A stretch of DNA of 64,000 bases from assembly GCA_030390025.1 (NCBI GenBank), contig CM059446.1:13888001-13952000 (forward strand), given 5' to 3'. Shown one piece after another: positions 13,390 through 53,449 of this stretch (positions are counted from its first letter, which is position 1; each line of letters begins with the position of its first letter). The translations under genes were made by a program, and so were the position numbers. The notes beneath the pieces were generated by a model. It was given only the letters and a program-made list of their open reading frames with translations, was not told the DNA's origin and ran no database searches. This stretch comes from Squalus acanthias (taxonomy: Eukaryota).

Positions 13390-16300
13390 TCCCTCCCTTA
13401 TTTTTGCTTCACTCAATCATCACAAAGTCCTTGACCCAACAAGTTTTCCGTCTTAACTGAGACCCTTCCTGACAACTCAGCTCTGGTCTCCCTTCACGAT
13501 TTTCCTTCAGCACCTACTCTTCTTCCTTATCCGTCTGCAACCGTTTCCCTCCGGCTTTGTTCCCTGGCTGATCATCCGCCTCTCCCACCCACTTCTTTAC
13601 AAGGGACATGTTCTGCTTAAAATTCACCCTGGCTGGTGACTTCTCCTTCTCTCCTCACCGCAGTGTGGAGTTCGGGTTTACCTTTTACCTGTTTTCAGCA
13701 CCTTCACCAAAACCTGATCGCCAACCTTAACCTTGCTTGAGGTCCCACATGCCTTCCCTCCACTTTGCGCTTCCATGTCTGATCTCAATAGCCCTCATCT
13801 GTAATATGGCCAATGTGCCGTCGTTCTGGCAACTTCATCTGCAGCTTGCGTCCAAACATGAACTGAGCTGGAGTCGCGCCCATTGCTGCCTGCAGGGTTA
13901 CCATTTCCTGCTTCCAATCTTTGCTTTCCGCCTGCGCCACATGTAGCGCCTTCATTAGAATCCCATTTGGCCGCTCCAAATCATTCGGCTATGGCCAGTG
14001 CGGGGCCATAATTCAATGTCCAACGCCTTATTCCTCCACAAATTGTTTAAACCCTTCAGCCACAAATTGCCTACCATTGTCAGTTCGCAGGACTGTAGTA
14101 GTCCACGTCTACCAGCAAATCTTTGCCACTGGGTAGAGGTTCCATAAGGTCCGTCGCCAGATCCTGCCACTGTGCACTTGGCGCTCTGCTTTGTACCAAC
14201 GGTTTGGGTAGAGAAAATGATCCGACCATTTGGGAACCACAGCAATGCTTGGACACTCGGACACTCGTTCCGTGTCCCAATCCATTCCTGGCCAACACAG
14301 GTCAGGATGGCTTTGTTTCCTTGGCCTGTACATCACCTTGAAGTCATACGGCTGTAATTGCAAAACCCAACACTCAGTCTTAGCTGGTGCCTTCAATGTT
14401 TTGGAGTAAAGATGCGCCAACGGCTCATGGCCCATTTCCAATTCAAACTCCTGGCCAAATGGGTAAATGTTGAAGCACTCGCATACCCACACCACAGCTA
14501 ACACCTCCTTTTCTATCTGCTCTTCCACATCGGTCAAGCTCCTGCTCGCAGAACTGATGGCTCTCGACACTCCTTCCTGTTTCTGCATCAGCACCGCACC
14601 TAATCTGATCAGACTCACATCTGGGAGTTCTAGCTAACTATGCCAAAGCCACGGACTAGATCAAAAATCCTTCCTCCAAAGCTTCTTGCTGCCTTTGACC
14701 CCCAATGTAAAAGGTGTGCTCGTCCTCGTCAGCATTGTAAGATTTCTGCAACTGTCACTAATTCGGGCAGAAGCGCTGGGGCTATACTACACCAAGCCAA
14801 AAATACTCTGTAGGTATGATGCCCATTTGGGTGGATTCGGACTCCTAACCGCCTCTATCTTCTCCTCAGACCGGTGAATACCATTTGCAGTCAAACAGTG
14901 CCCGAATAATGTTAATTCAGGCAGCCGAAACTCTCACTTGTCTGGATTAATCATCAATCCTGCCTGCTTAAATTTCTACAACACCATAAAAAGGCGTTGG
15001 TCATGTTCTGTCACTTTCCTGCCGTGCACAATCACAACTCCCTCATAACAGGCCAGCACGCTCTGCATGATCTTCTGAGTGTGCTCAGGCGCACTAAAAT
15101 TTCCGAATAGCAAACGTTTATTTTGACCGCCTCGGTCCCGTTCTAAACGTGGTGATAAACCTCGACTCAGGATCTTTGATGGAAGCCCCATTTCAGATCT
15201 AACTTGGAAAACATTTTACTGCCGTCTCATCCCTCTAAGATCTCCTCCAGCATCGGGAATGGATGAGGTTCTCTTATCGCTGCAGCATTAAGCCATGCGC
15301 ATATCCACGTATGCTCGAACATCCTCATCAGCTTGGGGTACCATGACTAAAGGACGAACCCATGGGCTCATCACATCAACTGCCTCAATGATGTGATCGG
15401 TTAGAAACTGGTCCAGTTTTGTGCCCACCTTGTCACGAAGTACAGATGGTATCTTCCTCAACGGCAGGTGTCAATGTCCAGCCTTCTTTGGGGATTCTTC
15501 AGCTTACCAATTCCAGTGAAACACTCCTGGAATCTCTCAAGGATTTCACCAGAGGTACTCTCTTTCCCAATGGTCCAACTTGTAATATGTTTAATTGCTC
15601 CACAGTCTTCTGACCCAATAGCGGCCGGCCTTTGCCGTCAAACTCAGCCTCACACTTTACCTCGTGAAACCATGCCATACATGGGGAATTCCCCAGTACT
15701 TTCAGTGGCTTTGTCATTGCATATGAAAAGGCTCCTTTGTGTATTCAGTGATCCTGCACTTAATCCTACTCGCTCTCACGGTTTCCCACATGAATTTGTT
15801 GACCAACCAGTACCACCATTAAAAGGCAATACACCATGACGTCACCCAGATTGCTGGCTCCATTTCTCCCTTTCCGCACACTCCATATAGAGTGCATCCC
15901 GACTTTCGGATTCCTGGTCGAGCAGCAGACAGCGGAGTTGCCAACCTTCCCACAATTCCTGCATTTCTTTCCCCATACTGGGCAATTTGGGTCTCACACA
16001 AAATGTCACTTTGTTACATGCAAAACAAAGCTGCTCCTTGTCCAACAATGCTCCAGTCCTTGGACCAATCCTGCCAGTGCCCCCATCAACCGCATTAATT
16101 CATTCATTCCTGTAGCTACTTCCTGGTCCACCAGCTCGTGAGCCCTGGCTATTCCCAACAATTCATCCAGACTCAGCGCAGTTCCTCTCTACCCGAGTTC
16201 CCGGCTCAGCGTGGAGTACTGGCACTTGGCAATGGCCTGATTCCTGATCTAATCATTGACACTGCAACCATGATCTTAGTTAAATGCCTGTAGTCTCAAC

Positions 16301-16518: not shown

Positions 16519-16955
16519 ACAGGTGACACCTCGGGTAGCTAAGTATAACTTAAATACCAACATACAAAGAAATGTCAGGCAGGCAAAGACCAGCTGGTCC
16601 ATCAAGCCTGCCCCACACTCATGATGGCTGGAGAATCATGACTAAACACTCCTCTCCGCCCGCCCCCAGCCATGTAATCTCGTGGGAGATGCAAAAAAAG
16701 AGAAAAACCCAGGAAACCAGGCCAGGAGATCACATGGACTGTGTATTATCTGTAAAGCCACTTACCTGCTCTACGATGCGATCTCTGCCTCAGTCAGGAA
16801 CCGGCCCAACTCCCTCTTGAAGGCAGGCAGAGACTCAAGCACCCACCGCACATGAGTGTGGGGCAGGCTTGATGGACCAGCTGGTCTTTGCCTGCCCGAC
16901 ATTTCTTTGTATGTTGGTATTTAAGTTATACTTAGCTACCCGAGGTGTCACCTGT
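16519..16955. repeat. 105-bp inverted repeat (16519-16623 and 16851-16955) with a 227-bp spacer
   Basis: The arms are reverse complements with one mismatch seen (gtcaggc vs gtcgggc). Confidence 0.95.
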
Positions 16956-21880: not shown

Positions 21881-22109
21881 CTTGACATCGTTGCCGGTTT
21901 TTCCAGCTTTTAAAAAAAACAAACACAAGAAACAAACCCAAATGGAGAGGATATGCAGCCAGCAGGTGTTTTGACACGTTGGACCCCCTGGGACACATCT
22001 CATTGTCTTGGCTGTGCTCTTAGTGTGTCTTTGATGTAGGGAAAGATTGAATCGCATTTTCTCTGTGTTTATATTCTGTGAATTCTGGTAGATTGTCTCA
22101 CAGTAACTC

Positions 22110-22145
22110 TACCTGAGGAAGGGGCGACAGCTCCGAAAGCTTGTA
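22110..22145 (+). ncRNA. Minimal type I hammerhead ribozyme in the Penelope terminal repeat
   Basis: tac-CTGAGGA-a-ggggc(gaca)gctcc-GAAA-gc-TT-gta: CUGANGA and GAAA cores, stem II, stem I tac/gta, palindromic AAGCTT stem III. Confidence 0.75.
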
Positions 22146-22277
22146 ATTTTAAATAAATCTGTTGGACTATAACCTGGTGTTGTGCGACTTCTCATTTTTG
22201 TACAATAGAGTGGTACTGCTTTGCCAACAACCCAATAGTGCACTAATATGATGAGCCGTAGACCAATATATAATAAT

Positions 22278-51010: not shown

Positions 51011-52164
51011 CAAGCATGGTGCCACATGGTATTCTCTGGGGAACCATTTTAGGCATCAAGGTTAATTCAGGTTTTCCATTTCAGAACATTTTACACACAG
51101 GATGGCGCTCTCATACTTGGAGGACATGATGGTAAGGCAGCAAAGCTCAGGACACAGGTTTACGTCTGCGATTCCCTGCATGCTAAGCTTTGAATTACAA
51201 ATATGTTATGAAGGAGGATATGTCAAGCAGAGGTCAGGTGCTTCTCCAAACATTAGGAGGGAAAATCAAAGCAAGGGTCACACTGTACCCATCTGGCATA
51301 GCTCAGAGATGATAGCAGAGGCCTGGGAGCAGATAGAATACGCTGGATGCATGGGGAGACTTGTAAAGAGGGGGGTGCGAAGTGGCCTACTCTATACGCG
51401 CAGTTAATCACCAAATATATATTATTTTATATCATAAAAGAGGTGCATCAAGCCCTCATTTCCTGTGTTAAAAATGTTAAAAATAATTAACAAATGTTCT
51501 ATTTGGCAAAGGATCTAGAAGGCCTGTAATGTCTTGGTGACCTTACCAATCAAAACTTAAAAAAAGAGAAAGTCAGGGTTATGACCTGCAGCTTGAACAG
51601 CAATTAAACTGCGACCTCATCTAGTGTTTACTGAACAGAAATTAGACTTTGTGGCGATAAAGGGCACAGTTTCACATTAACAGCAGAATATAATCTGCAT
51701 TATATGGGATAACATGATCCTTAAAACACAGCATACCACTTATTTGCCATGAGCAACACATGGGAGATCTGCTTGTAATATAATAATGTTGTGTGCACGT
51801 GCATTTCCTGTCTGCTACATCACACTTCCTGTGTCACACTTCTGTGTTCTCAATCCAAGCCAAACTTCTTGCAACTGACTGGCTCATTAACAATTTTTTT
51901 TAACAACAGAAAATGAGAAAGGCAATCATACTGAATGTGCAGGGAAACTCCCCACCAACATCAAATATTTTATAGAGTCAGAATATCTGTTGCCTGTGAC
52001 ATGAAAAATAACCTTTCTCTGCACATCTGCAGGTCCTCAGTGCCCCTCACTGTCATTGCCCCTATGCACGTATACCACTCGATTCCAGACTTTCCCCTGG
52101 CTTGCAGCTGCCACAGATCCTCTGTCTCACAGTTTCTTGACACTCTACCCTGTTTCTTCAGACT

Positions 52165-52539
52165 ATGATGTGGAGATGCCGGTGTTGGACTGGGGTGGAC
52201 AAATGTGAGAAGTCGCAAAACACCAGGTTATAGTCCAACAGTTTTATTTGAAATCACAAGCTTTCGGAGCGTTGCTCCTTCATCAGGTGAAGTCACAGGC
52301 CACCTGTGAGCTGGTGCAACAGACACAAGTGAAGAGAGCAACTGGAGTGATTGGGCTATGGGCGAAGACTGGGAGAGATTATGGGGTTGGCATGTGGGAT
52401 GGAGTGGAGCACAAGAATAGCAGCAACATAGTCTGAAGAAATGTGAGAAGTCGCACACGAAGGAGCAGCGCTCCGAAAGCTTGTGATTTCAAATAAAACT
52501 GTTGGACTATAACCTGGTGTTGTGCGACTTCTCACATTT
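52165..52539. mobile_element. Penelope terminal-repeat insertion: inverted pair (52165-52293 minus, 52458-52539 plus) with templated filler
   Basis: Both match the Penelope terminus at 22110-22200; flanked by the 15-bp direct repeat tttcttcagactatg (52153-52167, 52537-52551). Confidence 0.9.
52254..52290 (-). ncRNA. Minimal type I hammerhead ribozyme
   Basis: Minus strand tcac-CTGATGA-a-ggagc(aac)gctcc-GAAA-gc-TT-gtga; stem I tcac/gtga. Confidence 0.82.
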
Positions 52540-53449
52540 CTTCAGACTATGTTGCTGCTATTCTTGTGCTCCACTCTATTCCATGGTCCTTCAGGCTATG
52601 CTTTCCAAGGCCTTTCCCCTGGTGCTGCCAGGCCACCCCACCTCAATGGCATCAGACCCTAGAGTTCGTCCTGGCTGCTGTCATATCCCAAACCCTTTTC
52701 CCACCCCAAGGTCTGTCAAGCCCCATTCCACAGCCTGAATTTGATTAGCCTCGTTTCCCACCCCACTGCTCTGAGAGCACATACCCCTCCCCCAAGGCCA
52801 CTTGCGCTCTGCATGTAGGCCCCAAGTCTGGTATGTCCCAAAATCCTGGTGTGAACTGCAGGATGCCCATTCCCACCTAGTTCTCCTTCACCTCTGCCCA
52901 CTCCATCCCACATGCCAACCCCATAATCTCTCCCAGTCTTCGCCCATAGCCCGATCACTCCAGTTGCTCTCTTCACTTGTGTCTGTTGCACCAGCTCATA
53001 GGTGGCCTGTCCCTACTTGATCCAAATACAAATGTCCTGCTCCTCCCAGCTCCACAATAAGGCAAGTAAGAAGAATTAGAACTTATCTACCAGCGATCCA
53101 TTTAAGTGCATGAGAATACTGATCGAAGCATGCACGACGCATGCTGCCGTCAGCTGCAAACAAATTTTCCAAAGGCCTACTTGCACATGCAAAGGGCTGA
53201 ACCACAGTTTCAGGCACAGGCCCTGGACGTTTATGCAGGAATCTTTACCAATATGGCAGGCGGAACACTTACTGCGTGGAATGAGTGCTTGCAAGCGGCA
53301 CGCCATACTGGATGCTTAGGTTCCTGTTGTACTCCTGGAAAATGGGCACGGCACATCGAACAACAAGGCCAATGCTTTCAAACCAACATGTGGCGTGCTT
53401 GGGTGGTGTATGGCTGCATTAAGGCACTGCCGTTATTTTCTTTGCTTTC

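Follow-up and report, generated by a model that had tools for sequence, protein, structure and literature searches.

A Penelope insertion in Squalus acanthias that contains an inverted copy of its own junction and of nearby flanking DNA

Structure of the insertion

The stretch of DNA analyzed in the current study (the window) comprises 64,000 nucleotides of the 3.7-Gb genome of Squalus acanthias (C23:13,888,001-13,952,000), in which the Penelope locus lies at approximately 13.9398-13.9412 Mb. Positions below are those of the window, and q1 to q129 are numbered along the reverse complement of 52165-52293, the end of the Penelope repeat. The locus contains the following features.

52153..52167, plus strand: left copy of the target-site duplication, 15 bp, of which the last 3 are shared with the element end; relatives K and L have a single copy
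52165..52293, minus strand: long ("tailed") Penelope arm, q129 to q1; probably left-primed cDNA that ran to the likely RNA 5' end
52254..52290, minus strand: hammerhead-like minimal motif inside the long arm (CUGAUGA core, stem II, GAAA, 4-bp stem I)
52294..52294, plus strand: single additional C, absent from element and flank; likely a copied RNA cap
52295..52407, minus strand: filler piece 1, inverted copy of 52898-53010 (111/113)
52402..52407, no strand: 6-bp microhomology between the filler pieces, skipping 52577-52897 (321 bp); crossed by 54-nt contigs in runs X2 and X5
52402..52457, minus strand: filler piece 2, inverted copy of 52521-52576 (56/56)
52458..52539, plus strand: short ("tail-less") Penelope arm, q12 to q93; probably right-primed cDNA
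52537..52551, plus strand: right copy of the target-site duplication; its first 3 bases overlap the arm end
52552..52576, plus strand: flank present in filler piece 2, by sequence match
52577..52897, plus strand: flank missing from the filler, by sequence comparison; skipped or deleted afterwards
52898..53010, plus strand: flank present in filler piece 1, by sequence match; otherwise single-copy

When rechecked on the window sequence, every coordinate in the preliminary description of this DNA was found to be correct. The two direct repeats are exact and enclose terminal repeats on opposite strands, and the two filler pieces between these arms are joined at a shared CCACTC, which sits within an imperfect 10/12 match. 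Piece 1 differs from its template at 52306 and 52352. Piece 2 spans the element/target junction and is made up of 19 nt of the right arm end, the duplication and 25 nt of flank; the short arm overlaps it by 1 nt at 52457. The filler totals 163 bp, and its templates reach approximately 470 bp from the cut. As an inverted copy of the sequence beside the break it resembles a locally templated insertion, and the flank 52545-53030 matched only the filler elsewhere in the genome, in a search that skips very common words.

The C at 52294 had been left unaccounted for in the preliminary description. A 5-nt microhomology considered at this left joint was dropped, as the family sequence upstream of q1 differs and the joint is blunt plus one C. 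Seven matches from an Rfam scan were every one far below the gathering score, and the microRNA hits among them were rejected as reflecting the hairpin with 63-bp arms. The locus is a dead, apparently non-coding scar without sign of function.

The repeat family

The assignment of the arms to Penelope was upheld by long copies of the repeat, which encode a reverse transcriptase (RT) and a weakly matching GIY-YIG domain. An exact match to the final 36 nt of the long arm occurs 6,129 times genome-wide. Among eight ORF pieces from three long copies ending in the repeat (L093, L094 and L095), three matched RVT_1 over the curated cut-off, and the motifs LPKIHK and YIDD are visible in the RT translation. 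One of the eight pieces matched GIY-YIG (E 0.0036, below the curated cut-off), and a VY...YIG pattern was seen in the C-terminal ORF piece. The layout of 52254-52290 we take to be hammerhead-like: the core and two stems appear in the predicted fold, and Rfam gave no hammerhead match at E<=5. With its 36-nt tail and 15-bp duplication, the locus fits the inverted, truncated arms of this family.

Family-wide structure was assessed in the first 100 listed tail ends on contig 1, from which two segmental duplicates were removed (n=98). Two head-to-head arms within a 10-18 bp duplication were present in 71 of the 98 copies, in agreement with the expectation that inverted truncated termini are common in Penelope insertions. 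The tail-less arm ended at q87-97 in 68 of these 71, and at its priming site the target and element matched over a mean of 2.0 nt, against 0.6 in controls (49 two-arm copies, contig 1). In 24/71 copies the 5' reach of the short arm exceeded that of the long arm by more than 5 nt (22 when two complex loci are left out); the long arm reached further in another 24, and the two were level in 23. Since the short arm often outreaches the long one, copying of the long-arm cDNA by fold-back cannot be its general origin. These results support the second, oppositely primed cDNA of the preliminary description, and both target ends are likely primed separately.

Differences between the arms at q22 and q76 were considered as proof of two template RNAs and were rejected, because neither site reached a minor frequency of 7%. 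At subfamily sites the arms agree (at q52, 7/67 discordant vs 35 expected), indicating that both usually derive from one source element.

The most frequent stop of tailed arms was q1 (16/98). In one long copy, a TATA-like motif lies upstream and an initiator-like motif at q1. The base following q1 was G in 54 copies (mostly read-through), C in 20, A in 7 and T in 1 (n=82), and a cap-derived base occurs at full-length L1 junctions, according to the available text of PMC11702581. Together, the predominance of this stop, its promoter-like setting and the excess of C over T suggest that q1 is the capped RNA start, in which case the left cDNA at the studied locus ran to the end. Arms stopping at q1 usually carry an additional C, and the partner arm often begins at a C (q2, q5, q7 or q8). 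This suggests that the cap-derived C serves as a 1-nt clamp when two cDNAs join.

Empty site and read support

The preliminary description had proposed a search for the empty ortholog in related sharks, and this site was found in K and L (runs X22 and X24), without either terminus and without the filler. One 2,160-nt contig in each passes from 51800-52152 directly into 52537-53200 with a single 15-mer, and there were 40 and 42 differences, respectively, per 1,017 flank bases. An ortholog holding the filler without the Penelope termini, named beforehand as evidence against the proposed history, was thus not seen in these two relatives.

The skip between the filler pieces is crossed by a 54-nt contig with 0 differences in runs X2 and X5, which are from the same sample. 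Unitig depth over 52402-52457 was 21.5 in X2 vs 10.5-12.1 for the flank, and 59.9 in X1 vs 29.6, with another flank contig there at 51.3. Contigs end at 52547 and 52898 in X1 (a separate sample and study) and in X5, and these ends are the branch points expected from the skip. The joints 52293/52295 and 52457/52458 were not found among the listed short-read contig pieces; both lead into very high-copy sequence, and lack of contig cover there does not count against them.

An assembly artefact at the palindrome would account for two of the three joints being absent from the listed contigs, and inverted Penelope structures are known to assemble poorly (PMC8557442, in the part available). This explanation is nevertheless extremely improbable, given that the skip joint is crossed in two runs with the arm at double depth, that the branch points occur in two samples, and that filler and template differ at two sites, one of them with the base of the relatives. 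At that site, filler base 52306 is identical to the relatives' base at 52999, which indicates that it was the flank that mutated after copying.

Fillers at other copies

Within the 98 sampled copies, one exact direct flank copy was detected between the arms (L178; CI 0.03-5.6%) and no inverted flank-copied filler. A wider set was defined by pattern, as an arm stopping at q1, followed by 25-500 nt and a second arm. This pattern gave 71 rows, corresponding to 61 distinct loci including the studied one, and a further 1,494 rows had shorter centres. The loci examined were 43 of the other 60 and one that was added; in the 17 omitted, the first 80 listed bases looked element-derived.

Where at least 14 non-element bases were present, the filler matched its own flank in 10/27 loci, compared with 4/135 cross-locus controls (p 2e-6). 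Locus L302, a 91% match to a common repeat, was removed from this count. The nine remaining flank-copied fillers, seven direct and two inverted, measure 20-109 nt and derive from both sides, from at most about 1 kb away; most show microhomology of 2-5 nt at one or both ends. In the two inverted ones (L242 and L283), microhomology is absent from the end at which a snap-back would have been primed. Direct orientation accounts for 8/10 of the fillers other than that of the studied locus. Flank-copied fillers amount to approximately 0.6-1% of copies, the value of about 0.6% of rows (studied locus included) being a lower bound. Of the inverted self-flank copies that the preliminary description had proposed to count, this set holds two besides the studied locus.

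Several candidates were set aside. A match of L291 lies 6.9 kb away and was left out of the count; it is presumably a piece of a common LINE. For L285, a 93% match in another locus left the origin ambiguous, and L258 and L300 matched repeats alone. For L272, L295 and L298 no template was found within 10 kb. Other fillers consisted of internal RT-coding element sequence (L048:1591-1650), slippage-like repeats of the arm end (L054:1603-1638) or a tandem 35-nt array (L278). In two unrelated copies, a secondary element of one kind appears to have been inserted into the arm around q56-59; one is L180:75-962, counted from the tail end, and the other is the right arm of L242.

Copies of an element's own junction are rarer than flank-copied fillers. 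Such a copy was sought elsewhere as two tail-less q93 ends 40-100 nt apart, and this search with exact motifs at one end position gave the studied locus and L201 only. L201 was rejected as a second case because its tail is mutated and the element is otherwise normal. Among 78 other loci chosen by similarity, a large inverted flank copy was found solely at L058, which is the same locus as L098 (L098:3608-6050; G000:C19, about 51.54 Mb). This Penelope insertion includes an inverted copy of its flank, 917 bp long (98.3%); the intervening segment, in which the tailed arm and its duplication lie, is flipped, and a small fold-back piece lies on the other arm.

Formation of the filler

Before second-strand synthesis, no strand other than the bottom one at the right end would carry the cDNA/target junction, and fold-back of that strand's own 3' terminus is thus the simplest source of filler piece 2. 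At q76 the filler agrees with the right arm and not with the left. As the filler holds the insertion's own cDNA/target junction, priming preceded the fold-back.

In the order of steps that we propose, staggered cuts 15 bp apart would leave two 3' ends. On the left, cDNA synthesis would start at q129 and run to the capped RNA start (q1 plus C); on the right, it would start at q93 and end near q11. Both primings would involve a 3-nt match to the target. The right end would then be resected by approximately 470 nt or more. Its cDNA 3' end would fold back over a 63-nt loop, use itself as template for 19 nt, and continue through the duplication and 25 nt of flank. Synthesis would slip at CCACTC and copy 113 nt more, to 53010, and a blunt joint would finally link the end of the filler with the left cDNA. 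A host alternative end-joining enzyme (polymerase-theta-like snap-back) is the likely polymerase for the filler, which need not be the RT of the element.

It is very probable that fold-back took place in the course of insertion, whichever enzyme was responsible. With moderate confidence, we favour the view that the inverted copy of the right junction and flank arose by host fold-back synthesis, which joined the cDNA-extended ends of a two-armed insertion. Of the snap-back and microhomology jump put forward in the preliminary description, the fold-back at the junction is supported; the 321-bp skip may have occurred during synthesis or as a later deletion in a long palindrome. Likewise, the geometry of an "RT-driven" duplication is well supported but the role assigned to the RT is not, because internal priming, the microhomology skip and the blunt final join better suit host end joining, as known for L1 and plain breaks. 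The fold-back has 1 nt of microhomology, the skip 6 nt and the final joint none, and structure prediction gave no stable hairpin to prime the fold-back. The near-absence of pairing at the first and last of these, together with the lack of a hairpin and of priming homology at L242 and L283, weighs against host fold-back. Sequence alone cannot name the filler polymerase.

RTs jump mainly to the 3' ends of templates, and this argues against the alternative that Penelope RT itself folded back and copied exposed target DNA, with geometry and timing unchanged. Every template in the current study is internal and at most about 1 kb from the break, so that RT copying would need host resection or unwinding, and equal product types are formed at breaks without RT (PMC11724301, PMC2943611, in the parts available). 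On the other hand, two joints with pairing of 0-1 nt are in keeping with an RT able to jump where homology is slight, and the filler of L048 derives from internal element sequence, as expected if some fillers were copied from element RNA. Self-priming and template jumps have been proposed for Penelope (PMC3846280, in part), and L1 ORF2p can extend on DNA templates (PMC11702581, in part). Copying by the RT is on balance unlikely, though it is the foremost competitor of host synthesis. As an equally tentative extension, Penelope RT could act as its own gap-filling polymerase: having primed both target ends, it would fold back, copy the junction together with as much as about 1 kb of chromosomal DNA, and seal the break. 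If so, local inverted micro-duplications would arise steadily in the germline from Penelope, with dozens of them readable per shark genome.

Near-perfect palindromes are fragile, and an ordinary two-arm palindrome could have formed first, with the junction and flank copied by template-switch repair after a later break or stalled fork at its tip. The divergence of filler from template (2/326 sites) is nominally below the distance of the arms from the commonest bases (3/211), as later repair would predict, but the difference is not significant (p 0.39). Across the family, filler/template divergence was 7/444 in 10 other loci and 2/163 here, and arm/arm divergence 97/4,861 (p 0.53), which suggests a similar age for filler and element. 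Next to fillers the arms show no erosion, often retaining the additional C; at the studied locus nothing is missing from the left arm as far as q1 and the C, and the skip signature is present in both samples of the species. Later repair therefore appears improbable. Synthesis of the filler during insertion is favoured by the similar divergence and the intact arms, although this is a weak dating test that an event soon after insertion would also fit.

A still less probable history, to which we give very little weight, is that the right-primed broken end was replicated and its sisters fused as a foldback, with a second break near 53010 freeing a piece for attachment to the left cDNA. Such a fusion would duplicate the junction too, and L1 foldbacks from replicated, retrotransposon-made ends are known (PMC11702581, in the part available). 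It requires an additional break, however, and leaves unexplained the direct-orientation fillers, which are the majority.

Relation to known systems

The Penelope and Poseidon elements with inverted pLTRs in the available parts of PMC3846280, PMC8557442 and PMC11167929 share with the present family the head-to-head arms, the short duplication and an RT with C-terminal GIY-YIG. Their tail-less arm lacks a tail of 30-40 nt, compared with 36 nt here (PMC3846280, PMC8557442). In vitro, Poseidon_Ac cuts and extends both strands, and its RT starts at two adjacent RNA sites (PMC11167929). Initiation in that system was reported to occur without target homology, whereas about 2 nt (0.6 in controls) was observed here. 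The same parts of the three reports contain no description of a flank-copied filler or of an own-junction copy, and PMC8557442 and PMC11167929 treat the way in which Penelope elements build inverted repeats as an unsettled question.

Non-canonical L1 insertions, as far as described in the available text of PMC11702581, resemble the locus in that target-primed cDNA ends are handled as double-strand-break ends and receive local templated inserts. Inverted duplications, fold-back onto a resected end and a cap-derived additional base are also shared. The L1 events are somatic, human and have one poly(A)-primed end, whereas the Penelope locus is germline and stable. In addition, both of its ends carry cDNA from the same RNA region, and its own junction is included in the copy. 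A closer counterpart may be present in Figures S9-S10 of that paper.

Snap-back and loop-out SD-MMEJ and yeast foldback inversions (PMC2943611, PMC11724301, in the parts available) likewise show inverted or direct flank copies with minimal priming homology, and capture of the other end by end joining. The four classes of side and orientation, the internal templates and the short microhomologies found here agree with snap-back plus loop-out SD-MMEJ (PMC2943611). The yeast inserts are mostly short, about 5-34 bp (PMC11724301), compared with 163 bp in two pieces and a reach of about 470 bp here.

Literature outside subscription papers gave no description of a flank-copied filler in Penelope or of this shark family. 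Flank-copied filler belongs to a known class of repair scar that seems undescribed in Penelope, and the studied locus is a rare, unusually clear example of a scar known from other retrotransposons. Filler-bearing copies separate the arms. They show each arm to be an independent cDNA, and they identify the final step as the end joining of two ends that were extended and resected, not as self-priming of a single cDNA. The distinctive feature of the studied locus is its self-copied junction, which orders the steps, since the copy includes a finished junction.

Other features in the window

A Pfam scan of 15 of the 41 ORFs in the window gave a sole match, far from the Penelope locus: the RNase H-like domain of an LTR-type reverse transcriptase at 14112-14633 on the minus strand (PF17917, E 3e-16). 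An older, tail-less copy of the same Penelope repeat family lies at 22103-22204, with 86% identity to the arm. At 16519-16955, inverted repeats of 105 bp (99%) surround a 227-bp core, with 4-bp direct repeat flanks (CCTC/A context); the structure resembles that of a young miniature inverted-repeat element and has no relation to the arms of the Penelope insertion.
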